A DNA stretch of 38,422 bases from Patescibacteria group bacterium (GTDB lineage: Bacteria > Patescibacteriota > Minisyncoccia > Phycocordibacterales > UBA2100): positions 1-38,422 of the forward strand of contig JANLHO010000057.1 of NCBI GenBank assembly GCA_024654485.1, given 5' to 3'. Below are positions 3,311 to 36,262 of the stretch, one piece after another. Each line of letters begins with the position of its first letter. Positions within the stretch are counted from its first letter, which is position 1. The notes under the pieces were generated by a model, which was not told the DNA's origin, ran no database searches, and worked only from the letters and a program-made list of their open reading frames with translations. Made by a program: the position numbers and the translations under genes.

Positions 3311-3465
3311 TGAAATAAGGAGCGAAGCGACTATATTTCACTTGACCCGCCTAAATTTTGAAAACCATCAAAAGCGTGATATAAAGCCGCATCCGCTATC
3401 AGTACAAATTCATTATGAAAGGCTGCGTGGCAAATTTGGGCGGGTGTAAGAGTTTCTAACTCACT
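3311..3465 (+). repeat. Structured intergenic element, family A copy 1
   Basis: 5' hairpin AGTGAAAT/ATTTCACT with loop GAGCGAAGCGA. Outer stem 3345-3358/3432-3445 (ACCCGCCTAAATTT/AAATTTGGGCGGGT). Tail TTCTAAC at 3454-3460. Confidence 0.75.
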
Positions 3466-6879: not shown

Positions 6880-7065
6880 AGAAGATGTTATGAGCAAAGC
6901 GAATTACATATACTTTACCCGCCTAAATTTTGCGTTCAACGTGATGCAGAATCACTCATTGCAGAGCAGTGTTGCTGCTCAAATCCCGAGTATGGCAAAT
7001 AAGATAAATTTGGGCGGGTGGAAGTTATTTCTAAACTCGTATACACTCGCTAAGAAAAACTAACC
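6880..7065 (+). repeat. Structured intergenic element, family A copy 2
   Basis: Loop GAGCAAAGCGA at 6892-6902. Stem 6917-6930/7006-7019 is identical to copy 1. Tail TTTCTAAAC plus the pre-ATG motif CTCGCTAAGAAAAACTAACC (7046-7065). Confidence 0.75.
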
Positions 7066-7659: not shown

Positions 7660-7662
7660 TAT

Positions 7663-7800
7663 GCCCGGCAGGACAATTTCGAATCGCTACCTTATGATGA
7701 ATAATCACACCAATAACGGTTACGTCATGATGAAAGAAACGAATTTTCACTTTGATCGGGTGAGCATCCACAAGAATTATTCGAAATTGTACTAGCCGGG
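7663..7800 (+). repeat. Long hairpin filling the rpsE-rplO spacer (where rpmD normally lies)
   Basis: GCCCGGCAGGACAATTTCGAAT (7663-7684) pairs with ATTCGAAATTGTACTAGCCGGG (7779-7800). No ORF lies between. Confidence 0.7.
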
Positions 7801-7801
7801 T

Positions 7802-8305
7802 ATGGCAACACTCAACCAGCTTAAGCGAATGACGAAGAGGCCGTACCGCAGGGTCGGCCGCGGTCAATCCTCTACTCGCGGCAAGCAATCCGGTCGCGGC
7901 GGCAAGGGGCAGACAGCCCGCGCCGGTGCGAAAGTGCGCCCCGCCATGCGCGACATCATAAAGAAGCTCCCGAAGCGACGCGGCTTCGGGAAGAACCGTG
8001 CGCGTACCGTGGACGGCACCCGGCCGGTCGCTTTGGCGCTCTCCGTATCGCGCCTTGAAGCGCTTTTTGAGGGCGGCGCCGAGGTCACTCAGAAGGCGTT
8101 TATTGAGAAAAAGATAGTTTCGGCGCGGCTGCACCGTCCGGTCAAGATAGTCGGCGGCGGGGAGCTTTCCAAGAAATTCATCCTAAAAGGCGTTCCCGTT
8201 TCGGCCTCGGCCAGGAGTGCGATTGAGAAAGCGGGAGGTAGCATTATAGAATCCGCCCAAGGCGGATCGGCCTTGGGCCGAAAAGCCGGCGGCAGCGTCG
8301 CATAA
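7802..8305 (+). CDS. rplO: 50S ribosomal protein L15
   Basis: 167 aa starting MATLNQLK, with GRGQSSTRGKQSGRGGKGQ. Confidence 0.93.
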   Translation: MATLNQLKRMTKRPYRRVGRGQSSTRGKQSGRGGKGQTARAGAKVRPAMRDIIKKLPKRRGFGKNRARTVDGTRPVALALSVSRLEALFEGGAEVTQKAFIEKKIVSARLHRPVKIVGGGELSKKFILKGVPVSASARSAIEKAGGSIIESAQGGSALGRKAGGSVA

Positions 8306-8313
8306 ATTAAGAT

Positions 8314-9588
8314 ATGTGGGAAACATTTTTGCGCAAGATGAAGCTGGTCGTGGAGGACGGTGAGTTGCGCACGCGCATACTATTCGTCCTCGCGGCGCTC
8401 GTAGTCTTCCGATTTCTCGCGGCTATTCCGATACCCGGCATCAATGTGGCGGAACTTCAGGGATTCCTGAGCGGCAATCAGTTCTTCGGGCTGCTAAACA
8501 TCTTCTCCGGCGGCGGATTCTCCAATCTATCCATAGTTATGCTCGGCGTGGGGCCGTACATAACCGCTTCCATCGTCATGCAGCTCATGACGATACTTAT
8601 CCCGAGACTCAAAGAAATGTATCAGGAGGAAGGGGATTCCGGACGGCAGCGTTTCATGCAATATTCGCGCTATCTTACTGTGCCTCTCGCATTCGTACAG
8701 GCTTTCGGCTTCCTTCTTCTGTTGCAGCAAAACGGAATCGTGCCGGAATTGGCGCTCTCGCAGCTTCTGACCAACGTAACCGTTATCGCGGCCGGTTCCA
8801 TACTGCTTATGTGGATAGGCGAGCTTATCTCGGAATTCGGAGTCGGCAACGGCGTGTCGCTCATCATATTCGCCGGTATCGTGTCCAGTATTCCCACGAG
8901 CGTCGCGCAATTTGTTTTCTCTTTTGACGTTTCGCAGCTGCCAGCATACATCGCATTCACGGCAGCCGCTTTGGTAATCACTGCGGGCGTCGTGTTTATC
9001 ACAGAAGCGGAGCGCCCCATACCCGTCACGTATTCGCGTCGCGTACGCGGTATGAAGGTACTCGGCGGCATATCCACCTATCTCCCGATACGCGTCAACC
9101 AAGCGGGGGTAATACCGATAATCTTCGCACTCTCCATGCTGCTTTTCCCGCAGATGATAGCGACCTTTGTTGCGCGAAGCTCCATTCCCATATTGGCCGA
9201 CGCCGCGAATGCCGTTGTTGCGGGCCTAGCCGACCAATGGATATACGGCATCCTTTACTTCGCTCTCGTCGTTCTCTTTACGTACTTCTACACCGCCATC
9301 ACCTTTGAGCCGAACCAAGTGGCGAAAAACCTCCAGAAGAACGGCGCTTTTATCCCCGGCGTTCGCCCGGGTGGGCAGACCAGCGAGCATCTCGGCAACA
9401 TAATCACGCGCATTACTCTTGTCGGCGCGCTTTTCCTCGGCTCTCTTGCAGTCCTGCCGCTTATCTTGCGCGGCATCACGGGCATCACCGCGCTAACGAT
9501 AGGTGGCACGGCGCTCCTCATCGTGGTGTCCGTCGTTCTTGATGTCGTTAAGAAGGTAGACGCACAGACATCCATCAGGGAATACTAG
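8314..9588 (+). CDS. secY: Preprotein translocase subunit SecY
   Basis: 424-aa polytopic membrane protein in the conserved position after rplO. Confidence 0.97.
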   Translation: MWETFLRKMKLVVEDGELRTRILFVLAALVVFRFLAAIPIPGINVAELQGFLSGNQFFGLLNIFSGGGFSNLSIVMLGVGPYITASIVMQLMTILIPRLKEMYQEEGDSGRQRFMQYSRYLTVPLAFVQAFGFLLLLQQNGIVPELALSQLLTNVTVIAAGSILLMWIGELISEFGVGNGVSLIIFAGIVSSIPTSVAQFVFSFDVSQLPAYIAFTAAALVITAGVVFITEAERPIPVTYSRRVRGMKVLGGISTYLPIRVNQAGVIPIIFALSMLLFPQMIATFVARSSIPILADAANAVVAGLADQWIYGILYFALVVLFTYFYTAITFEPNQVAKNLQKNGAFIPGVRPGGQTSEHLGNIITRITLVGALFLGSLAVLPLILRGITGITALTIGGTALLIVVSVVLDVVKKVDAQTSIREY

Positions 9589-10802
9589 ATGTCGTACCGG
9601 TCTCTGGTGTCATACCCGATTACGACGAACAGTTTGCCGCTTTCCGTTTCAGCAAGTTTCTTTGCGACATCTATCCCCGTTATCGTTGAGCGTCCATAGC
9701 GCTTCATGTCTTGGCGTTCAGATTCCTTAATGTCGGTTCGTACGACCTCTTCCGGCAAGTCTCTCCCGCTGCCCTCAAACTCACTCACGGTCTTTGAATC
9801 CGCGAATTCCCGTACGTCTGCCACGAGTTTCGCGGCTTGCTTGATAGCTGCGAACTCTATACCAGCAAAGGCTTGCCCTGGATGACGGTGCCGGGAGAAA
9901 TCTTCCGCTTTGAACCCCGCGAGCATCTCCTCGCGAACCTCTTTGCCATATTTTTCCTCGAACGCGACGCCTGCGGAGAATGGCTCATACGCGACAACTC
10001 GTGTCTCAGGCGCGATCTCCCTGAAGCGCTCCGTAATGCCGAGCGTGTTCGTTCCGTTGCCGACGGCCGACAATATGACGACATCCAGTGCCTCGTGCAT
10101 CGGTAAATCACGTTCTATCTCATCTGTTATCGCGTGCATTGTTTGCACGGCGTTCTCGTTCACGTCGCTGCCTGCACCGAGGATATTGCCCATGCTGTGA
10201 TTTATGAAAACTACATTGGCATGTTCTTTGAGATATTCATTCAGGAACGGTTTAAATCCGTTAACGTATAACTCAGGCGGGGTCATGTGCAGCCGTGCAC
10301 CTGCGGCCTCGATAGCCTCTTCTCGGGGCTTCTCTCCATCGGCTGGTATAGCGACCTCGCATCGGTATCCCAATCGCCTGCCCATTTCAGCGAAAGATAC
10401 GCCGGCGGTGCCAGAGGTAGTTTCAAGTACCGTGTCACCCGGTTTGATAATGCCAAGCCGCTCCTTTTCTTCGAACAAACGCAGATATACGCGGTCGTAA
10501 TGACTGTGGCCTACACCGTTCTCGAACTCCTGCTTCACGAAAAGCCTGTTTCCGTTCGGCAGTATATCTTCATGTTCCACGAGCGGCGTATCGCCGACTT
10601 CTTCCGCAAGTTCATCATATAGTGCTTGTCTGTCGGTCGGCAGCTCCACACCTTTGACAAATCGGTGCATTTGCAATGCGTGGCCGTATTCGCTCGTCGC
10701 TTGCGCAATACGCAGTTTTCTCTGGCGCGTGGTCTTTCTGGGAGTATCTCTCAACTCTTTGGCGATATGGTCACGATACTGCCGATGGTCGAAGTCTTCC
10801 AT
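9585..10802 (-). CDS. Fold-type II PLP enzyme-like protein (CysK/CBS-like), apparently lacking the catalytic lysine
   Basis: Contains ETTSGTAGVSFA, the Gly-rich loop SAVGNGTNTLG, and the C-terminal VVIGYDTRDRY. The S-x-K-D-R position reads SHYDR. Start ATG 10802 was chosen from -10 spacing; the ORF opens at TTG 10847. Confidence 0.65.
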   Translation of the reverse strand: MEDFDHRQYRDHIAKELRDTPRKTTRQRKLRIAQATSEYGHALQMHRFVKGVELPTDRQALYDELAEEVGDTPLVEHEDILPNGNRLFVKQEFENGVGHSHYDRVYLRLFEEKERLGIIKPGDTVLETTSGTAGVSFAEMGRRLGYRCEVAIPADGEKPREEAIEAAGARLHMTPPELYVNGFKPFLNEYLKEHANVVFINHSMGNILGAGSDVNENAVQTMHAITDEIERDLPMHEALDVVILSAVGNGTNTLGITERFREIAPETRVVAYEPFSAGVAFEEKYGKEVREEMLAGFKAEDFSRHRHPGQAFAGIEFAAIKQAAKLVADVREFADSKTVSEFEGSGRDLPEEVVRTDIKESERQDMKRYGRSTITGIDVAKKLAETESGKLFVVIGYDTRDRYDI

Positions 10803-10808
10803 GCCAAT

Positions 10809-10814
10809 ATGATA
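10809..10814 (-). promoter_or_regulatory. -10 box, leaderless-type spacing
   Basis: TATCAT, 6 nt before ATG 10802 (minus strand). Confidence 0.4.
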
Positions 10815-10863
10815 CCCCATGACGGGTAGATGGAAGGATATCGTCAATCGGGGCGTGAAATGT

Positions 10864-10876: not shown

Positions 10877-11455
10877 ATGGCAAAGCAGGTAGTCGTGATA
10901 GCGGGACCATCGGGTAGCGGGAAAAATACCGTGATAACGCGCATCATGCAGGGATGTCACAATTGCGCTCGTCTCGTCACCGCTACGACGCGCAGCATGC
11001 GTCCGGGCGAGGTGGACGGGGTGGACTACCATTTTTTTACGCAGGAGCGTTTTGACGAAGAGATGTCAGCCGGCAACATCCCCGAGCACCGCTTCGTTCC
11101 CGCGCTTGGCACCTACTACGGCACATATTTGCCGGACCTTGAAAGACGCATAAAGGACAAAAAGGTAGTTTTCGCGCAGGTGGATATAGAGGGGGCCAAG
11201 CTACTCAAGGAGCGCTACGGAGCGACCACCATTTTCATCATGCCGGAATCCGTAGAGCAGTTCCGCGCGCGCCTTCGCGCCCGCAATCCGGAGTGGAGCA
11301 AGAAAGAGTTTGAGGCGCGGATGGCTATCACCGAGAACGAGATGCGCGCTCATGCTCCCCAGTACGATTATCGTGTAGTCAACGCGGATGGCAGGCTGGA
11401 CGAAACGGCACGCGAGGTTGTGGAAATCTTGCGCAAAGAGGGATACAATCTCTAG
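10877..11455 (+). CDS. gmk: Guanylate kinase
   Basis: GPSGSGKNT P-loop and TTRSMRPGEVDGVDYHFF. An alternative start is ATG 10868. Confidence 0.85.
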   Translation: MAKQVVVIAGPSGSGKNTVITRIMQGCHNCARLVTATTRSMRPGEVDGVDYHFFTQERFDEEMSAGNIPEHRFVPALGTYYGTYLPDLERRIKDKKVVFAQVDIEGAKLLKERYGATTIFIMPESVEQFRARLRARNPEWSKKEFEARMAITENEMRAHAPQYDYRVVNADGRLDETAREVVEILRKEGYNL

Positions 11456-11600
11456 GAATTGTTATGAGCGAAGCGAATTATAATTTCTTGACCCTGTTTA
11501 ATCCCGCTAAAAGCGGGTCGCCGCAAAGCGGCGAATTTAACAGGGTGCAAGTGATTCTAACCTCCTCACTAACTGGCAAGTCGCCAAGAATCACTAACAT
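11456..11600 (+). repeat. Structured intergenic element, family A copy 3
   Basis: Loop GAGCGAAGCGA at 11466-11476. Compensated stem ACCCTGTTTAAT/ATTTAACAGGGT (11491-11502/11535-11546). TTCTAAC at 11555-11561. Pre-ATG motif GTCGCCAAGAATCACTAACAT. Confidence 0.7.
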
Positions 11601-12188
11601 ATGAAGCCCCTAACGGTTCTTTTTTTCGGGTCGCAAGGGGCCGGCAAGGGGACGCAGGTCAAGATGCTCATGGATTTGCTGCGCTCCAAATCCGACAGGG
11701 AAATTATCCGCATAGACATGGGTCAGGAATTGCGGAACTTGAGGGACACCGGCACGTATGCGGGGAAGCTGACGGGCGAGATAATAGACAACGGAATTCG
11801 CATATATGATTTCATGGCTATTTATCTTCAGACAAAGTTGCTGATGGAGAATTTTACGGGCGAAGAACACATAATAGCCGACGGTCTGGCTCGCGGCGAC
11901 GACCAGACGAGAGGGTTTGACGACATGATGAAATTCTTCAAGCGCGATGATCTTCAGGTGGTCAATCTTGTTATATCCGACGATACAGCGGTCAAGCGCC
12001 TCTTGGCGCGGGGCCGCAACGACGACACGGAGGAGGCGATACGAAGGCGTCTCGCGTGGACCAAGACGGATGTCCTGCCGCAGTTGGAGCTTTTGAAAAG
12101 CCGCGGGCGCACCGTACACGAAATAGACGGCGAGCCGGACGTCAAGACGATACACAATAATATACTCGCGGCACTCGGATTGTCATGA
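11601..12188 (+). CDS. adk: Adenylate kinase (short, no zinc lid)
   Basis: GSQGAGKGTQ P-loop, 195 aa, in the conserved position before map. Confidence 0.85.
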   Translation: MKPLTVLFFGSQGAGKGTQVKMLMDLLRSKSDREIIRIDMGQELRNLRDTGTYAGKLTGEIIDNGIRIYDFMAIYLQTKLLMENFTGEEHIIADGLARGDDQTRGFDDMMKFFKRDDLQVVNLVISDDTAVKRLLARGRNDDTEEAIRRRLAWTKTDVLPQLELLKSRGRTVHEIDGEPDVKTIHNNILAALGLS

Positions 12189-12318
12189 CCCGCACACTAA
12201 TTTTGCCGATGCCTCTTATGAACACTGCCGATTACATGGAAATGATTATCAATAGTCAGCATTCCGCGCGCGTAGCATATTGCTACGGCACGGAATGTCG
12301 GCAATTTTAGTGTGCGGG
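12189..12318 (+). repeat. 130-nt hairpin element flanked by CATGA direct repeats (adk-map junction)
   Basis: Inverted ends at 12189-12209 and 12298-12318. CATGA occurs at 12184-12188 and again at 12319-12323. Confidence 0.75.
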
Positions 12319-12319
12319 C

Positions 12320-13087
12320 ATGATAGTAAGAACGAAATCGGATGTTGCGGCGTTGAGAGAAGGCGGCAAGAGGCTCGCTCGTCATGTGCGCGTCCTGAGC
12401 GAGATGGTCGCCCCCGGCATCACGTCGCGCGAGCTTGAGATGCATGCACGAGAGAGGGTGCGTGCGGAGGGCGACGAGATGGCTTTTTTCGGACACAAAG
12501 AGAGGAACGAAGAGCCGTACCCTTCTGGCCTGTGTCTTTCGGTGAACGACGTTATCGTGCATTCACCCGCAGGGCAGAACGAGGTAGTAATACAGGATGG
12601 CGACATCGTGTGTCTGGACTTCGGTATCAAGCACGAGGGGCTCATCACCGACCATGCGGTAACGGTGATAGCGGGCACGCCGAAGAGTCCGGCCGACGAG
12701 AAGCTGGTGCGCGGCACGTATGAGGCGCTTGCTGCGGGCATCAAAGAGGCTAAGCCCGGCAATACGACTGGAGATATAGGATACGCGGTGCAGCAGATCG
12801 CCGAGAAATACGGCTTCGGCTACCCGAAACACCTCTCCGGGCACGGCGTCGGGCTGAAGGTACACGAGGAGCCGCACGTACCCAATTTCGGAGAGCCGGG
12901 CAAAGGAGTGAAGCTTGTGGAGGGGTTGGTGATAGCCATTGAGCCGATGATGACGCTGGGAAGCGGTGAGCTGTATATAGACAAAGACGGCAGGTCGTAC
13001 CGCACGAAGGATGGCTCGCGCACCGCGCACGCGGAGCACACAGTACTCGTCACCAAAAAAGGCCCGGAGATTTTGACCAAGGAATAG
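12320..13087 (+). CDS. map: Type I methionine aminopeptidase
   Basis: 255 aa with metal-site motifs (DIVCLDFG, GHGVGLKVHEEP, IEPM). Confidence 0.95.
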   Translation: MIVRTKSDVAALREGGKRLARHVRVLSEMVAPGITSRELEMHARERVRAEGDEMAFFGHKERNEEPYPSGLCLSVNDVIVHSPAGQNEVVIQDGDIVCLDFGIKHEGLITDHAVTVIAGTPKSPADEKLVRGTYEALAAGIKEAKPGNTTGDIGYAVQQIAEKYGFGYPKHLSGHGVGLKVHEEPHVPNFGEPGKGVKLVEGLVIAIEPMMTLGSGELYIDKDGRSYRTKDGSRTAHAEHTVLVTKKGPEILTKE

Positions 13088-13101: not shown

Positions 13102-13641
13102 ATGAATATCACGTTGTTCGGCTCCGAGAATGAAGTTGCCGATATCTACAAGCAAGCAACTGTCGAGCTAGCCGGACTTGTCGCCAAGGGTGGGCATACC
13201 ATTGTATGGGGAGCAATCGACGGTGGTCTTATGAAGGTTGCGGTCGACACCATGCAAGCACGTGGCGCAAAAATTATCGGCATCGGCGCCGATTACATCA
13301 GAAGCAAAATGCGTGCCTCGGCGGATGAAATCATAATGGCGTCCGGTATGGACGATCGCAACACGAAAATGTTGGAGTATGGTGACGCTATTCTCGCCCT
13401 CCCGGGCGGCGTTGGAACGATAAATGAAGTTACGTACGTTTTGCGGCTCAAGAAGCACGGATTCGCAAAGCCGATAGCTGTGCTGAATACGGACGGATTC
13501 TTCGACGGGCTCAAAGCACAATTGGAGCGCATGAACGCGGAAGGTTTCCTCAAGAATCGTCTTGAGGGTATTGCCTGTTTCGCCGACACGCCCGAAGAGG
13601 CGATGCGGTATGTTGAGAAGCATGGTGCCGGCGCTCTTTGA
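13102..13641 (+). CDS. LOG-family (TIGR00730-like) Rossmann-fold nucleotide-binding protein
   Basis: 179 aa with the PGGVGTINE motif (PGGxGTxxE). Confidence 0.8.
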   Translation: MNITLFGSENEVADIYKQATVELAGLVAKGGHTIVWGAIDGGLMKVAVDTMQARGAKIIGIGADYIRSKMRASADEIIMASGMDDRNTKMLEYGDAILALPGGVGTINEVTYVLRLKKHGFAKPIAVLNTDGFFDGLKAQLERMNAEGFLKNRLEGIACFADTPEEAMRYVEKHGAGAL

Positions 13642-13701
13642 GTAGGCATATTACGGTGCTGGACAATGCAAGTTAACAATGCATCCGCCTATTCTAGAGA
13701 C

Positions 13702-13738
13702 GGTACAAATAAATGACACCTGTCATCCATTTGGTACC
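13702..13738. promoter_or_regulatory. 37-bp dyad, candidate operator copy 1
   Basis: GGTACA-AATAA-ATGACA-CC-TGTCAT-CCATT-TGGTACC, immediately 3' of the regulator stop codon. Confidence 0.5.
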
Positions 13739-13739
13739 A

Positions 13740-14312
13740 CTATTTCAACCCGAAATGCTTCGTGAGTTTCTCCGAGCCATCAATATTTTCTGCGCTGATG
13801 AACGAAACGTACTTTGTGATTCCATAAAATCGGCAAATCGGCAGCACGGTATCCCTTATCGGAAATGGATAAACGAGTACGGATTGCTGGTATTGCACTA
13901 ATCCAAGACCAAGCAATATACGGTTGAACGCTTTTCGCGCGGAAGATTCAGGGAGTGGGATATCAAATAAAACAAGGTGCCACGTTCCGTTCCAGTGTTG
14001 TTGACGAGGGATGCGAAGATTCTCCAGTTCTGCGGCGGACAGTATGCGCGAACCCTTGTCGCTGACGGCATATCTAACGCCATGTTTGGCAAGATACCCC
14101 TGTTTCTTCATGTTGCGGACCTTGCGTGATACGTACCGTCTGTTCTCGCGAGTGTCGCCGAGCGTGAATTCTTTGAGAAGACGGTTCATGGCGCGAGGCG
14201 ATGGAGCGCCGCCGAGCCCGATTACCAGCGCTCCTATGGCGATCATTTGTAGTATTTGCACTGTGCGTTGTCGGCCGATGCTCCTTTTGTTAGCAATTGC
14301 AGATTTCCTCAT
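13740..14312 (-). CDS. PaaX-like/Cas2-fold transcriptional regulator-like protein
   Basis: WNGTWHLVLFDIP...GLVQYQQSVLVYP module plus a wHTH-like RKVRNMKKQGYLAK. Start ATG 14312 (MRKSAIANK) is preferred over the longer ORF. Confidence 0.55.
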   Translation of the reverse strand: MRKSAIANKRSIGRQRTVQILQMIAIGALVIGLGGAPSPRAMNRLLKEFTLGDTRENRRYVSRKVRNMKKQGYLAKHGVRYAVSDKGSRILSAAELENLRIPRQQHWNGTWHLVLFDIPLPESSARKAFNRILLGLGLVQYQQSVLVYPFPIRDTVLPICRFYGITKYVSFISAENIDGSEKLTKHFGLK

Positions 14313-14319
14313 ATTATGC

Positions 14320-14355
14320 GGTACAGATAAATGACACCTGTCATGTAATTGTACC
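14320..14355. promoter_or_regulatory. 36-bp dyad, candidate operator copy 2 (regulator/purD divergent region)
   Basis: GGTACA-GATAA-ATGACA-CC-TGTCAT-GTAAT-TGTACC. On the minus strand it contains TACAAT (14348-14353). Confidence 0.5.
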
Positions 14356-14396
14356 ATCCGGAGGAGTTCTCGGTAATGGATGACGATGAACGGTGA

Positions 14397-14402
14397 TACA
14401 AT
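14397..14402 (+). promoter_or_regulatory. -10 box, leaderless-type spacing
   Basis: TACAAT, 7 nt before ATG 14410. Confidence 0.5.
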
Positions 14403-14409
14403 CCTGTCT

Positions 14410-15675
14410 ATGGACGTATTGCTTGTGGGCGGTGGTGGGCGCGAGCACTCCCTCGCGTGGAAGCTCGCGCAGTCGCCGCAGATAGGCAAGCTCTATATCG
14501 CTCCCGGCAACGGCGGCACGGCGCGTCTGGGCGAGAATGTTCCCATCGGGGCGATGGAATTTGAAAAGCTGGCGGATTTTGCCGCAGAAAAGAATGTCGG
14601 ACTTACGGTGTGCAGCATGGACGATCCGCTTGCCGCCGGTATCGTGGACCTTTTTCGGGAGCGCGGCTTGCGGATATGGGGTCCTTCCAAGTCGGCGGCC
14701 AGAGTAGAAAGCTCCAAAGCATTCGCCAAGCAGCTCATGAGCGATGCGAAAGTCCCGACCGCAGCTTTCAAGGTCTTCACCGCATACGCACCCGCTCTAG
14801 GGTATGTGCGCCGGCAGGGCGTACCTATCGTCATAAAGGCGAGCGGTCTCGCACTCGGCAAGGGAGTGTATGTGTGCAAGACAGTGGAGGAAGCGGAGGC
14901 CGCTCTAAAAGAAATTCTGGTAGACAGAGTACACAATGATGCGGGCAGCGAGGTCGTGATAGAGGAATTTCTGGACGGTCCGGAGATATCCATACACGCT
15001 CTTTGCGACGGATCCACGCACCTCATGTTCCCCCCGTCGCAGGATCACAAAACTATATTTGAAGGCAATGAAGGTCCAATGACGGGCGGGATGGGTACAT
15101 ACGTCCCGGTACCGTGGGTGGATGAGGATGCTATGAGCGGCATAGAGGCGCAGGTGGTGGGGCCGACGCTTGACGCTCTTGGTCGCTCCGGCGTGCAATT
15201 CACAGGCCTTCTTTACCCGGGGCTAAAGATGACGGCGGAGGGACCGAAGGTGCTGGAGTTCAATGCGCGCTTCGGCGACCCCGAATGCCAAGCCTACATG
15301 CGCCTCATGAAGAGCGATCTTCTGGAGCTACTGGAGGCATCCGCCGATGGCACATTGGATGGCGTGCGAATTGAGTGGCAAAGCGGCTTCGCCGTCAACA
15401 TAGTCATAGCTTCCGGCGGCTATCCGGGAGAGTACAAAAAAGGACTTCCCATCACGGGCATAGAGGAGGCGGAGAAGATATCCGGCGTCGTCGTGTTTCA
15501 CGCGGGTACGAGATTGGAGGGTGACGTGCCCGTTACGAACGGCGGGCGCGTACTCGGAGTGTCGGCTGTGGGGCGGACTCTCAAGGAAGCTCTGGACAGT
15601 GCCTACAAAGCCGCCGATACAATTCAATTTGAGGGCAAATACTTCCGCCGCGATATAGGAGCGGGGGCGCTATGA
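14410..15675 (+). CDS. purD: Phosphoribosylamine-glycine ligase
   Basis: MDVLLVGGGGREHSLAWKL N-terminus and an ATP-grasp body. Confidence 0.95.
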   Translation: MDVLLVGGGGREHSLAWKLAQSPQIGKLYIAPGNGGTARLGENVPIGAMEFEKLADFAAEKNVGLTVCSMDDPLAAGIVDLFRERGLRIWGPSKSAARVESSKAFAKQLMSDAKVPTAAFKVFTAYAPALGYVRRQGVPIVIKASGLALGKGVYVCKTVEEAEAALKEILVDRVHNDAGSEVVIEEFLDGPEISIHALCDGSTHLMFPPSQDHKTIFEGNEGPMTGGMGTYVPVPWVDEDAMSGIEAQVVGPTLDALGRSGVQFTGLLYPGLKMTAEGPKVLEFNARFGDPECQAYMRLMKSDLLELLEASADGTLDGVRIEWQSGFAVNIVIASGGYPGEYKKGLPITGIEEAEKISGVVVFHAGTRLEGDVPVTNGGRVLGVSAVGRTLKEALDSAYKAADTIQFEGKYFRRDIGAGAL

Positions 15676-19866: not shown

Positions 19867-19954
19867 GCGCCGGCTGGGCGAGATTTCGCGCCCTGCGGGG
19901 CTTGCTTCGCTTCGGGCAGGTCCTCTCGGTCCCGAAATCTCGCCCCGCTGGCGC
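19867..19954 (+). repeat. Long hairpin after ndk
   Basis: GGGCGAGATTTCG (19876-19888) pairs with CGAAATCTCGCCC (19933-19945), with imperfect GC extension on both sides. Confidence 0.6.
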
Positions 19955-19992: not shown

Positions 19993-20040
19993 GTATACCA
20001 CCACACCCACTTAGTGCACTAAGTGGGTGTGGTGGTATAC
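19993..20040. repeat. Perfect 48-bp palindrome, family P copy 1
   Basis: GTATACCACCACACCCACTTAGTG followed by its exact reverse complement. Confidence 0.85.
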
Positions 20041-23075: not shown

Positions 23076-23125
23076 ACGTTTTTGATTTGCATACCCCGTG
23101 GCGACGCTCCGCGCCGCTTTACGGG
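23076..23125 (-). repeat. 50-nt hairpin-containing insert flanked by a 12-nt duplication of the rpmI start
   Basis: GTTGGTTTTCAT occurs at 23064-23075 and again at 23126-23137. The internal inverted repeat is ACCCCGT (23093-23099) with ACGGGGT (23121-23127). Confidence 0.65.
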
Positions 23126-23137
23126 GTTGGTTTTCAT

Positions 23138-23313
23138 ATCTTAGAGATTCTTAGCGAGCGCCACGAGCGTTAGAAGCTCTTAGACCCGCCTAAATTTGCC
23201 GAAGCAAAAGGCCGAAAAATCGGCCGTGCGGGAACTATACCGCATTGATTGCCTAGGTGCAACTTTAGAGCCAAATTTGGGCGGGCAAGGTAAAACAGTA
23301 CTTATTTTACGTC
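23138..23313 (-). repeat. Structured intergenic element, family A copy 4 (minus strand)
   Basis: Read on the minus strand: 5' hairpin GTAAAA...TTTTAC (23290-23310), stem arms at 23273-23285 and 23184-23197, TTCTAAC (23169-23175), and pre-ATG motif CTCGCTAAGAATCTCTAAGAT (23138-23158). Confidence 0.7.
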
Positions 23314-27676: not shown

Positions 27677-27685
27677 TTTGGCACG

Positions 27686-27723
27686 CCCCCACACCGACTT
27701 TTTTGGAAAAGTCGGTGTGGGGG
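27686..27723. repeat. 38-bp palindrome, family P copy 2
   Basis: CCCCCACACCGACTTTT-TTGG-AAAAGTCGGTGTGGGGG. GCACGCC lies on both sides (27681-27687 and 27730-27736). Confidence 0.8.
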
Positions 27724-27729
27724 TATAAT
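27724..27729 (+). promoter_or_regulatory. -10 box, leaderless-type spacing
   Basis: TATAAT directly abutting the palindrome, 7 nt before ATG 27737. Confidence 0.55.
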
Positions 27730-28533: not shown

Positions 28534-28554
28534 AACCCGTCATTCAGGGTTTTT
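28534..28554 (+). terminator. Weak terminator-like hairpin overlapping the GIY-YIG 3' end
   Basis: AACCC-GTCATTCA-GGGTT followed by TTT. Confidence 0.3.
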
Positions 28555-28812
28555 CGTTTCTAATCCCTCCTGATATCGCTCGATGAGCATCTCTTTCTTG
28601 CCGCAGCGCCACTTTTTTATCTGAATCTCACGCTTTCGCGCGTCGGCAAGCGCTTCGTATTGCTCTAAGAAAACTATCTCGAAAGTCGGGATTCTTCTTG
28701 TGAACTGTGCGCCGCGCCTGGCGTTGTGATGGGCGAGTCGTTGTTGTGGGTTATTAGTAACACCGACGTAGAGTTTGCTTGCGGAGTTGCGAATCATGTA
28801 GACGAAATACAT
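28540..28812 (-). CDS. GIY-YIG nuclease superfamily protein (UPF0213-like)
   Basis: 90 aa with YFVYMIRN...KLYVGVTNN...RLAHHN. Confidence 0.85.
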   Translation of the reverse strand: MYFVYMIRNSASKLYVGVTNNPQQRLAHHNARRGAQFTRRIPTFEIVFLEQYEALADARKREIQIKKWRCGKKEMLIERYQEGLETKNPE

Positions 28813-28824: not shown

Positions 28825-28914
28825 GTCCCTCGACGTTGCTCGGGACACCCGCCGCGCCCGAATGTAAGGTGGCTTGCCACGAGCAAGCCCCTCCTTTAGG
28901 AGGGGCGCGTCGAG

Positions 28915-29302
28915 TGGAGATGGAGGGAATTGCACCCTCGTCCAGAGAAGAGAATATGAACGCTTCTACACAACGTAGATCATCTTGAAGATTTAAGCGA
29001 TGCGCCTTAAAGATGAACGAAACGGCGCACTGCCGAGTCCCATTTCTTAGATACGGGCGGGACAGATCCGCATCAGTACTTGAAGTTTTTTTACGCCCTT
29101 TCAAGCTTGATCAAGCTTCGGCCTGAAGGACGGCGCTTAGGCAACGTATGCGTAAGCGGGCTGCAAGTCTGCCATCTGGATAGGTGACAAAATTGCCCGT
29201 GCTACTTTGTTCGCACTTGGATTTTGAGGCAGTTTCAAAAGATGCCCCAACTTTGTTGTGCACGCACATACTCCTATTTCCCTGTCGAAACTGATCATCC
29301 CC
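28915..29302 (-). ncRNA. ssrA: tmRNA (ssrA), CCA not encoded
   Basis: The minus strand starts GGGGAUGAUCAGUUUCGACAGGGA. The 3' end is GAGGG-UGCAAUU-CCCUC-CAUCUCC-A. The acceptor stem pairs with the 5' GGGGAUG, including G3:U. The tag frame ends ...ADLQPAYAYVA-UAA. Lies downstream of smpB. Confidence 0.85.
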
Positions 29303-34738: not shown

Positions 34739-34850
34739 CGAAGCCCCGACGCTTTGGTCGGGGTCCCGCCCGCTACGCGCGTCGGGAAAGAAGGAGGACA
34801 TAGAGCACGCTCCTTTGGCATAGTTGCGCCTTGGTCGCGCGGAGCAGAAG

Positions 34851-34962
34851 ACGGCCGGCGGGATAGTATTTCTCCGGGTACGGATTTTTCCAGCAGGAAA
34901 AATCCTCGGGCTTCGCGCCGCCGCGCTGCAGAGCCCTTCCAAAATACTATCCCGCCGGCCGT
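34851..34962. repeat. Long hairpin with 21-bp perfect stem (ftsH/pyrC convergent spacer)
   Basis: ACGGCCGGCGGGATAGTATTT (34851-34871) pairs with AAATACTATCCCGCCGGCCGT (34942-34962). The inner hairpin is GGATTTTTCC-AGCA-GGAAAAATCC. Confidence 0.75.
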
Positions 34963-34966
34963 ACTC

Positions 34967-36055
34967 TTACGGCCGTAGCCGCCAACGCATTGTCTCGTTG
35001 CCGAGCCCGTGCCGGGCGCTGGCCACGGGCCATATGTTCACTCCTTCGTCGGTGACTACCGCTTCCGTGACCTGCCAGTCTTTCTTCTCCAGCGTTATTT
35101 TGTTTTCATCAGGTTCCAGTCCGAAAAATCGCGGGCCGTTCGCCGAGAGAAAATCTTCAAGCTTGTCCAATGCGCCTATCTCATCAAAAACCTGCGCGTA
35201 CATCTCCACCGCGACGGGGGAATTGAAAACGCCGAAGGCGCAGCACGATGAGAATTTCTTATTCTCCGGATGCGGCGCGGAGTCGGTGCCGGCGGAAACG
35301 AAAGGCAGACCTTTTTTTATCATCTCGCGCAATCTTTCGCGGTCCTCGCGTCGCTTCACCAGAGGTTTGCAGTGCAGGAGGGCGCGGTAGCCGCCGGAGA
35401 ATGCTTGAGTGCGGTCGTACATAAGATGATGGGGGGTCACTGTAGCGACGAGCTTGCCTTCCTTGCCGTTTTTTTCCATGAAATCTATCGCCTCGGTGGT
35501 ACTCATGTGCTCCAGCGATACTTTCAGCTCGGAGTATGTGTCCAAGAGGCGGGGCAGGGTGTCGGCGATGAAAAGCTTCTCGCCGTCATACGGGTCTTCT
35601 TCCTCGTCTTGGTCGTTTAGGTGTACTTCGCCGTGCAAGAGGAGCGGCATCCCGAGGCGCTCCATCTCTTTCAGTACATCTTTCGCCTCCAGAATGTTGC
35701 GGTAACCCCATTGCGAGTTGGTGGTGGCGCCGAAGGGATATGATTTGACGCCGTATATCCGCACGCCCTCCGCTCCGACAGCCCCGCGCTCTATCTCCGC
35801 AGGCGTCAGATTCTTCGTGAGATAAAAGGTCATGAGGGGGTCAAATCCGCCGGCACTTTCCGGAACGGCCTCTCGTATTTCTCCATAGTATTCAATTGCG
35901 GTACCAAGCGTATCAATAGGCGGCTCGGTATTGGGCATGATGATGGCGTGGCCGAATCGCTCGGCGGAGTAGGGCGTCACGGCGCGCAATACGGAGCCGC
36001 GCCGCAGATGCAAATGCGAATCAAACGGCTTGCGGATGGTAATTGAGTCGGTCAT
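34967..36055 (-). CDS. pyrC: Dihydroorotase
   Basis: ATG 36055 gives MTDSITIRKPFDSHLHLRRG (HxH metal motif). The longer ORF to 36232 crosses the palindromes. Confidence 0.9.
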   Translation of the reverse strand: MTDSITIRKPFDSHLHLRRGSVLRAVTPYSAERFGHAIIMPNTEPPIDTLGTAIEYYGEIREAVPESAGGFDPLMTFYLTKNLTPAEIERGAVGAEGVRIYGVKSYPFGATTNSQWGYRNILEAKDVLKEMERLGMPLLLHGEVHLNDQDEEEDPYDGEKLFIADTLPRLLDTYSELKVSLEHMSTTEAIDFMEKNGKEGKLVATVTPHHLMYDRTQAFSGGYRALLHCKPLVKRREDRERLREMIKKGLPFVSAGTDSAPHPENKKFSSCCAFGVFNSPVAVEMYAQVFDEIGALDKLEDFLSANGPRFFGLEPDENKITLEKKDWQVTEAVVTDEGVNIWPVASARHGLGNETMRWRLRP

Positions 36056-36114: not shown

Positions 36115-36158
36115 GCCACTTGTTTATAATCCGCGGGCGCGGATTATAAACAAGTGGC
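36115..36158. promoter_or_regulatory. 44-bp palindrome carrying TATAAT on both strands (pyrC/pyrB divergent region)
   Basis: GCCACTTGTTTATAATCCGCG-GG-CGCGGATTATAAACAAGTGGC. Confidence 0.6.
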
Positions 36159-36215
36159 CGTTCTTCTGTCTCGGCTGTTCTAAAACACATGCCTTTGCGC
36201 GGCTTGCGCGCGGGA

Positions 36216-36261
36216 GTATACCCCCACACCAACTTTGTACAAAGTTGGTGTGGGGGTATAC
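36216..36261. repeat. Perfect 46-bp palindrome, family P copy 3
   Basis: GTATACCCCCACACCAACTTTGT followed by its reverse complement. About 19 of 24 arm positions match copy 1. Confidence 0.85.
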
Positions 36262-36262
36262 T
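36257..36262 (+). promoter_or_regulatory. -10 box at palindrome edge, near-leaderless spacing
   Basis: TATACT, 8 nt before ATG 36271. Confidence 0.5.

Follow-up and report, generated by a model that had tools for sequence, protein, structure and literature searches.

The genes for adenylate kinase (adk) and type I methionine aminopeptidase (map) are separated by a nearly palindromic stretch of 130 nucleotides (nt) in a contig of a Patescibacteria group bacterium (JANLHO010000057.1, assembly GCA_024654485.1; positions 1 to 38,422, analysed as a whole and called the window below). Comparison with the same junction in relatives shows that this palindrome is a small, non-coding mobile element that was recently inserted into an ATGA overlap of the adk stop and the map start, with duplication of the 4-5 bases (C)ATGA. 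We consider it probable that all three parts of our reading hold together, namely that a mobile element was inserted, that it belongs to a wider class of elements sitting on start codons, and that the coupling of the two genes is relayed through an open frame in the insert. The insertion accounts for an unusual gap of 131 nt at a gene junction that ranks among the best conserved in bacteria, and illustrates how a strong hairpin can be accommodated by a gene pair that is essential and coupled in translation.

Filled and empty sites at the adk/map junction

The window contains a ribosomal-protein/secY/gmk/adk/map cluster, and the homologues of its Map protein are named Candidatus Kaiserbacteria (Patescibacteria, also known as candidate phyla radiation, CPR). 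All features described below are on the plus strand unless stated otherwise. The open reading frame (ORF) of adk extends over 11601..12188 (Pfam PF00406, ADK, E=3.2e-16) and that of map over 12320..13087 (PF00557, Peptidase_M24; homologues at most 93% identical). The two junctions between host and element are marked by direct repeats CATGA at 12184..12188 and 12319..12323, which are spaced by exactly 130 nt (12189-12318). The left copy contains the adk stop TGA together with the ancestral map ATG, now the start of a 41-codon frame, and the ATG of the right copy (12320-12322) is the present start codon of map. The coordinates that the original prediction had given for the adk stop, the map start, the two CATGA copies and the distance between them proved correct throughout.

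Using Map homologues, we retrieved the adk-map regions of relatives, which yielded 13 loci from at least six organisms with Map proteins 80-93% identical to that of the window. In all 13 of these loci, adk ends at the map start + 3, i.e. the genes share a 4-nt ATGA overlap. As read from these junctions, the overlap is ancestral, in agreement with the original prediction that a stop/start overlap of this kind had been interrupted. The flanks of the two closest loci (L001 and L002) are 83-89% identical to the window at the nucleotide level (89% for the L001 adk gene up to its stop), and their junction reads GGATTATCATGATAGTAAGAAC. The closest empty site, TTATCATGATAGTAAGAAC, equals the window minus exactly 135 nt: TTATCATGATAG in L001 and L002 corresponds to GGATTGTCATGA[130 nt]CATGATAGTAAGAAC in the window. 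The empty site that had been predicted, ...TCATGATAGTAAGAAC, is thus present in the closest relative, and relatives with unrelated long spacers were not encountered.

The insertion of 135 nt is in frame and both genes are intact. The C-terminus of adk and its TGA stop (12186-12188) are preserved despite the insertion, the gene ending in GTCATGA (...GGATTGTCATGA). The map gene starts with CATGATAGTAAG, and the N-terminus of its product, MIVRT..., agrees with the Map proteins of the relatives. After the insertion, adk keeps its stop and map keeps its ATG at the same place relative to the coding sequence.

As CATG is itself palindromic, the flanking repeat also lengthens the stem of the element, so that the sequence of the window alone would be no proof of a target duplication. 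The duplication is demonstrated because the empty sites of the relatives lack exactly 135 bases at the conserved ATGA overlap. Of the 5-bp duplication originally proposed, the four bases ATGA are duplicated for certain; the length may be 4 (ATGA) or 5 (CATGA), as the C before the right ATG was either duplicated too or is the last base of the element.

Anatomy of the 130-nt element

The ends of the element are formed by a left arm, CCCGCACACTAATTTTGCCGA (12189..12209), and a right arm, TCGGCAATTTTAGTGTGCGGG (12298..12318), the latter holding a TAG at 12308-12310. The arms were found where the original prediction had placed a 21-nt terminal inverted repeat; the repeat is not perfect, as 19 of the 21 positions pair and two central T-T mismatches remain. 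No further match to this arm pair with up to 3 mismatches was detected within the 38-kb window, and none occurred in 100 shuffles.

The element folds into one long, nearly perfect stem of ~27 bp with a nested hairpin (12260-12297) in its interior (12210..12297). Both inner hairpins of the original prediction are present in the minimum-energy fold, CATTCCG (12260-66) pairing with CGGAATG (12291-97) and GTAGCA (12272-77) with TGCTAC (12281-86). The folding energy is -76.4 kcal/mol for the RNA (z = -7.8) and -39.9 kcal/mol for the single-stranded DNA (z = -7.7). The interior shows no similarity to other elements, and comparison among the hairpin elements of the window revealed no significant interior similarity.

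From the left ATG, a 41-codon frame (MTRTLILP...CRQF*, 12185..12310) runs through both arms and ends 9 nt before the map ATG. This frame has no homologue among 1.84 billion representatives and no Pfam match. Known structured RNAs were also not found: with the Rfam gathering threshold, the whole window gave a match only for the transfer-messenger RNA (tmRNA) elsewhere; inside 12189-12318 nothing was detected at E<=10, and a search of 11440-12340 in E-value mode returned only noise. A terminator scan of the element gave 0 terminator-like sites, and a promoter scan gave none on the plus strand. A terminator, a promoter or a known structured RNA were therefore rejected as identities of the element. 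An integron attC site was rejected as well, since the ends are CCCGC/GCGGG, core sites of the type RYYYAAC/GTTRRRY are lacking, and the element lies within a conserved operon of housekeeping genes.

A second copy with the same arm type

A further copy with the same terminal repeat and different flanks, of the kind that the original prediction had asked for, was found outside the genome of the window on one metagenome contig, L017 (2.7 kb), which came up among contigs retrieved for a different purpose. Its copy (L017:202-330) is 129 nt long, with arms CCCGCACACTAACATTGG / CCAATGTTAGTGTGCGGG, and shares the arm type (CCCGCACACTAA..., at 202-219 in L017) with the adk/map element at another junction in another genome. 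The two copies have largely dissimilar interiors. In the arms, one base pair is swapped on both sides, G-C in L017 versus C-G in the window, so that pairing is kept. The L017 copy is flanked by gatcATG on the left and by tATGgttc on the right, i.e. by a C-left/T-right asymmetry. A stop codon lies 5 nt upstream, and downstream follows the start of a 68-aa ORF.

Contig L017 also has a copy of a second family, called F below, at 606-736, 270 nt from the first. The 68-aa ORF, which resembles a membrane protein, is bracketed by the two. It follows that the two arm types coexist in one genome besides that of the window.

Searches with the exact 21-mer arms in 185,579 species-representative genomes gave one chance match (Lachnospiraceae) lacking a partner arm; the same searches gave 0 matches in JGI metagenome contigs and 0 in viral contigs. 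A 16-mer from the right end had 3 chance matches in viral contigs, none of them with a left arm.

A sister family at start codons

When all intergenic gaps of the window were folded, another hairpin with this design came to light, a 137-nt element of family F (7664..7800) that follows the stop codon of S5 (TAG 7657-59) and precedes the start codon of L15 (ATG 7802). Its layout is TAG-TATG|CCCGGCAGGACAATTTCGAAT...ATTCGAAATTGTACTAGCCGGG|TATG-GCA, with the TATG flanks at 7660-7663 and 7801-7804, and it is crossed by a single open frame (7661-7795, 44 aa). This copy is missing from L001, where the S5/L15 gap is 11 nt. An F element with identical arms is present at L14/L24 in L011, a relative with Map identity of ~80%.

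A metagenome scan with the F arms gave 90 loci, or ~55 distinct sites after de-duplication. The arms were fixed by the search pattern and their invariance is not evidence, in contrast to the flanks, which were free. On some 30-70-kb contigs we found 3-4 copies, about one per 10-25 kb. Candidates for long (autonomous) elements behind single-arm matches turned out in every case to be ordinary copies in which one arm was mismatched, or copies truncated at the contig end.

The right flank of F is TATG at 54 of 55 sites, and the left flank ends in ATG at 48 of 55, the preceding base being T in 38 cases and C in 11. Where the left flank reads TATGA or TATGG (n=5), the right flank repeats the same 5 bases. 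In one copy (L101), GTAT is found on both sides, a 4-bp duplication without ATG. ORFs were analysed at 57 sites. A long ORF begins with the right ATG at 55 of them; at 51, an upstream ORF running in the same direction was found, and at 42 such an ORF ends at most 8 nt before the element. The orientation of F relative to genes is therefore fixed.

The T before the right ATG was found at 54 of 55 sites even when the left base was C, which is not expected for a plain staggered-cut duplication. These flanks suggest that the T is part of the F element and that the joining site is a common core, ATG (or ATGA/ATGG). A true duplication of 4-5 bp agrees better with the GTAT/GTAT copy and with the C/C flanks of the adk/map element. 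RNAalifold detected no conserved or covarying interior structure in family F, only the terminal stem.

Long versions with a GIY-YIG domain

Five F copies, four of them distinct (L062, L065, L072/L082 and L100), are longer than the others, with 302-303 nt. In L062 and L065, the frame that starts with the left ATG and stops at the right-arm TAG encodes a protein of 99 aa (MPGRTISNRF...NNSKLY*; MPGRTISNRFYYVYVLESMKDGKQYIGYTSDLRKRMEQHQQGKSF...NNSKLY* in L065). In L072/L082 and L100, a TAA ~20 nt earlier leads to a 93-aa version. The 99-aa protein matches the Pfam GIY-YIG family (60 bits, E=2.8e-16) and is the sole content of the long element. We found 95 homologues, many of which start with MPGRTISN and end with NNSKLY, residues that are encoded by the arms. 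The similarity of short and long F elements is confined to their ends, ~27 nt on the left and ~35 nt on the right, with nothing significant in between. On this pattern of shared ends, the short version is to the long version what a miniature inverted-repeat transposable element (MITE) is to its autonomous element.

The layout is not confined to F. Two other subfamilies with mini GIY-YIG genes have different arms and the same arrangement: ATG|CCCAGTAGTACAACTTCGAG...CTCGAAGTTGTACTACTGGG|tATG and ATGGG|TCACGTTAGAGATA...TATCTCTAACGTG|ATGGG. Both come from TARA ocean and wastewater assemblies (L110/L112:1501-1830; L108/L109). Across these subfamilies, the combination of an ATG repeat, an inverted repeat and a bare GIY-YIG domain appears as a general design, and the origin of the contigs suggests that the class is widespread beyond Kaiserbacteria.

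The window itself contains an intact stand-alone GIY-YIG gene of 90 aa (28543-28812, minus strand; Pfam 61 bits) without inverted repeats. It is located directly downstream of the tmRNA gene (28912-29302, minus strand), and its product is ~30-35% identical to the element-borne nucleases. Nothing ties this gene to the adk/map element.

A probable open-frame relay through the inserts

Translation through the insert could explain how coupled genes tolerate such elements. For the short F copies, we followed the chain of frames from the left ATG, with restarts permitted at any ATG lying between 4 nt upstream and 12 nt downstream of a stop. The 48 distinct short copies are diverse, falling into 39 clusters at 80% interior identity. 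In 45 of the 48, the chain arrives exactly at the ATG of the downstream gene. Interior shuffles succeeded in 15% on average, a null expectation that takes no account of descent from an open ancestor and so overestimates selection on the relay to some degree.

The copies use four frame solutions, depending on length: one ORF to the right-arm TAG, two ORFs via an internal ATGA to that TAG, one ORF with a TGA overlapping the downstream ATG, or two ORFs with that TGA. The three codon positions in the relay frames diverge nearly equally (0.29, 0.32 and 0.34), indicating that it is the openness of the frame that is conserved and not the peptide. Repair of the frame after length changes is nevertheless hard to account for without selection.

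The adk/map element uses the one-ORF solution. Its ATG at 12185 overlaps the adk TGA in an unchanged ancestral context. Ribosomes finishing adk would reinitiate at this left ATG, as they formerly did on map, and would translate the 41-codon frame through the hairpin, which would melt. They would then stop at the TAG (12308-12310) and reinitiate 9 nt downstream on map, so that coupling would be relayed and not broken. If the insert were not translated, the stem would be expected to hide the map ATG, and map expression would in this way stay dependent on adk translation. Because 45 of the 48 F copies keep the chain where 15% would be expected, translation across the insert is the likelier way for coupling to persist; a bridge formed by the hairpin, the less likely alternative, is discussed below.

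Probable membership of the adk/map element in the start-codon class

Several features of the adk/map element are those of MITEs. Terminal inverted repeats are located at its very ends, where none are expected by chance. The comparison of filled and empty sites shows a target duplication (4 or 5 bp). The element has 130 nt and no transposase gene, and its only frame is 41 codons long. It is present in the window and absent from relatives. As to copies at several sites, a single further one is known (L017), in another genome, and none was found elsewhere in the 38-kb window. A longer autonomous partner was found for the sister family F (the 302-nt GIY-YIG element) and not for the CCCGCACAC arms.

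The element also resembles the start-codon class in detail. The direct repeat, CATGA, contains an ATG, and the right ATG is the start codon of the downstream gene, map. The position is stop-to-start with fixed orientation, the adk stop overlapping the left ATG, and the L017 copy is alike in this respect. The ends are CCCG...CGGG in both cases, with CCCGC...TAG TGTGCGGGC ATG in the adk/map element and CCCGG...TAG CCGGGT ATG in F; the distance from the right-arm TAG to the downstream ATG is 9 nt in the former versus 6 in the latter. The sizes are also close (130 nt versus 131-137 nt for F), and the frame is open over 12185..12310, followed by the 9 nt to map.

Other observations weigh against our reading. 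The arms of the adk/map element and of the GIY-YIG-bearing element agree at only ~12 of 21 positions, and there is no relation between their interiors. Using tblastn and a hidden Markov model (HMM), we detected no GIY-YIG remnant in the adk/map element, the L017 copy or the composite elements described below. No nuclease-bearing version with CCCGCACAC arms was found in the genome and metagenome contig searches or among the loci of GIY-YIG homologues. As sequence homology was not found, the link to the class is based on anatomical features common to both, on their occurrence together and on terminal motifs that are loosely alike. Known copies of the exact adk/map type number only two, in two genomes. 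The right-flank base, C in the adk/map element versus T in the L017 copy and in family F, leaves the boundary of the element ambiguous. With respect to the relay, a frame as open as that of the adk/map element is expected in 27.5% of shuffles and is alone not significant, and the left-ATG frame of the L017 copy is MPAH*, which stops after 4 codons and provides no relay; the bias of the shuffle null mentioned above points in the same direction.

On balance, the architecture leads us to favour, with some reserve, membership of the adk/map element in the GIY-YIG-associated class. It would then be an ORF-less, MITE-like member, moved in trans by a nuclease or recombinase encoded outside the window. 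More tentatively, and with less confidence than in this assignment, we propose a class that has not been described: units of ~300 bp, whose only gene encodes a GIY-YIG protein of 90-100 aa and contributes its first and last codons to the inverted repeats, together with derivatives of ~130 bp. Such elements would integrate on start codons at stop/start junctions, by a staggered cut or by a crossover on the ATG core, with repetition of the ATG; they would be selected as translationally transparent, and they would be able to enter the ribosomal-protein operons of minimal CPR genomes. Searches of full-text literature gave no description of mini GIY-YIG elements bounded by inverted repeats or of MITEs that target start codons, but their coverage was incomplete and this is not proof of novelty. 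The adk/map element works like a MITE, and the class to which it points could be new.

Alternative explanations

As the original prediction had suggested, coupling could in principle outlast the insertion with the insert untranslated, if the stem sets the adk stop beside the map start and the terminating ribosome melts the base of the stem and transfers to the map AUG. In line with this, the stem takes in the flanking CAUG on both sides, which places stop and start at the helix base, and almost every F site has this geometry too, through pairing of YAUG with UAUG; moreover, the L017 copy and 3 of the 48 F copies persist without a relay frame. Such a bridge leaves unexplained why open-frame chains are so frequent among the F copies and why the frame solutions differ with length. 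In addition, the left ATG retains its full ancestral initiation context, so that reinitiation there is expected anyway, and we regard the bridge as unlikely. A further proposal, that the 41-codon frame is a real gene for a small protein between adk and map, can point to an ATG in a coupled context and to 41 open codons. It is hardly credible given the lack of homologues and Pfam matches noted above, the absence of the frame in relatives, its early end in the L017 copy and the missing codon-position signal in the F relay frames.

With regard to the origin of the insert, it might derive from a classical DDE transposon as an ordinary MITE and have no connection to GIY-YIG genes, its likeness to F being a convergence of palindromes that survive only at gene junctions. 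Terminal inverted repeats with a 4-5-bp duplication are the textbook signature of a MITE, no nuclease remnant is present in the adk/map element, and the GTAT duplication of the L101 copy is what a staggered cut would give. A staggered cut at random sites does not predict the fixed orientation and the ATG flanks at ~98% of F sites, nor a right-flank T that is invariant even with C on the left, and the L017 copy has the same C-left/T-right asymmetry. Furthermore, no transposase gene was found in the window or beside any copy examined. We judge a DDE origin to be improbable. It is a good deal less probable still that the host has taken over the hairpin as an RNA element, for instance a site of RNase III processing or a stabiliser by which the adk and map messages are separated. 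The long, nearly perfect stem of ~27 bp would suit this role, and CPR rRNA genes are reported to contain short ORF-less insertions as well as GIY-YIG-encoding insertions that are not introns (PMC11270868). On the other hand, the hairpin is missing from all relatives and hence is no conserved regulator, and the family shows neither a covarying interior structure nor an Rfam match. Finally, a spurious palindrome created by the assembler would be expected neither to insert in frame (135 nt) with both genes intact nor to recur with the same architecture in ~90 independently assembled contigs from several projects, and we give an assembly artefact next to no weight.

Other hairpins and insertions in the window

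A third family consists of composite intergenic elements, at 3311-3465, 6880-7065, 11456-11600 and 23076-23313 (minus orientation) in the window and at L001:1199-1315. Each comprises three hairpins: a small one on the 5' side, a large one with the arms ACCCGCCTAAATTT / AAATTTGGGCGGGT, and one on the 3' side whose terminal CTAAC comes right before the downstream ATG. The arms of the large hairpin read ACCCTGTTTAAT / ATTTAACAGGGT in the gmk/adk copy, changed on both sides with pairing kept. The composite elements precede S17, S5, adk and L35 and have been gained or lost between close relatives; in L001, L18/S5 is without such an element and L6/L18 has one. Three composite elements start with tATGAGC(G/A)AAGCGAATTA, and their frame (MSKANY... 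or MSEANY...) reaches or overlaps the downstream start, which is the layout of a relay. The 57-aa frame of the L18/S5 copy has no homologue. Readings of the composite elements as attC-like sites or promoters were rejected, as core motifs and spacings do not fit.

Perfect or near-perfect palindromes are located at 19993-20040, 27685-27725 and 36215-36262, and also at 36115-36158, 19867-19954 and 34846-34967. Several have the form (GTATA)CCCCCACACCNACTTT without an interior and resemble the adk/map arm CCCGCACACTAATTTT. These interior-less palindromes could be operators, terminators or ends of repeat elements.

Two further differences from relatives concern genes. A gene for a pyridoxal phosphate (PLP)-dependent enzyme (Pfam PALP, 420 aa, 9585-10847, minus strand) is located between secY and gmk; it was not at this position in any relative examined, the secY-gmk distance there being 5-90 nt. 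Between the LOG-family gene and purD, ~790 nt (about 13619-14412) are missing in L001, where both genes overlap. This stretch is bracketed by 33-nt direct repeats (13701-13733 / 14319-14351) that are 88% identical, and on its minus strand an ORF encodes a PaaX_M (Cas2-like) domain.

Significance and comparison with known systems

The elements described here form a prolific class in CPR bacteria that targets start codons, including those in ribosomal-protein operons, and whose only gene, where present, encodes a bare GIY-YIG domain. If this nuclease moves the elements, it would represent a transposition-like use of GIY-YIG chemistry, of which we know no example in bacteria. The relay frames amount to a natural, many-times-replicated experiment on termination-reinitiation coupling. 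They also call for caution in annotation, as many ORFs of 30-45 codons in CPR genomes would be by-products of such elements.

Bacterial MITEs such as Correia/NEMIS in Neisseria and RUP in Streptococcus pneumoniae are non-coding and have ~100-150 bp. They are likewise small, with terminal inverted repeats that form a hairpin in the transcript and a short direct repeat; they are variably present between close relatives, and they share only their ends with a longer, protein-coding element. The start-codon elements differ from them by the ATG in the flanking repeat, the fixed orientation and the exact stop-to-start position. In addition, the coding partner of F is a 99-aa GIY-YIG gene that includes the inverted repeats, and not a DDE transposase, and the frames are kept open.

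Extragenic hairpins that are mobilised in trans by a small nuclease and inserted beside a specific short sequence are also known from repetitive extragenic palindromic (REP) sequences and REPINs, with their REP-associated tyrosine transposases (RAYT), and from derivatives of the insertion sequences (IS) IS200/IS605. IS200/IS605 elements have neither an end-to-end inverted repeat nor a direct repeat. The adk/map element differs in having both and in lacking a tetranucleotide of the GTAG type. An origin from REP/REPIN-RAYT or IS200/IS605 was rejected because of these repeats, and no RAYT or TnpA gene was found in the window (as judged from the ORF list, of which selected ORFs were scanned against Pfam).

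The Rickettsia palindromic elements (RPE) insert inside genes and become part of the protein. They resemble the start-codon elements as palindromic repeats of ~100-150 bp in a reduced genome that are tolerated by preserving reading frames. The start-codon elements, in contrast, are located between genes and keep translational coupling rather than a single ORF.

The seg genes of T4-like phages are free-standing genes for GIY-YIG homing endonucleases. Homing takes such genes to a single cognate site, which is repaired with the homologous allele as template. Like seg, F has a small selfish GIY-YIG gene between host genes that uses the expression of the host operon. F differs by occupying ~55 unrelated junctions and by having inverted repeats and ORF-less derivatives, and its protein consists of the catalytic domain of ~90 aa without a DNA-binding domain. 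The adk/map element was not classified as a homing endonuclease gene, as it has no nuclease ORF and its sister family is found at ~55 sites.

A last comparison comes from the same group of organisms, in which rRNA genes have been reported to contain insertions that are not introns and encode GIY-YIG proteins, together with short insertions lacking an ORF (PMC11270868). The GIY-YIG genes in non-introns and the ORF-less companions are shared with the elements described here. The insertions in question differ in lying inside rRNA genes, and the passages of that study consulted here do not mention an architecture of inverted repeats or ATG repeats. They may be related to the start-codon class.

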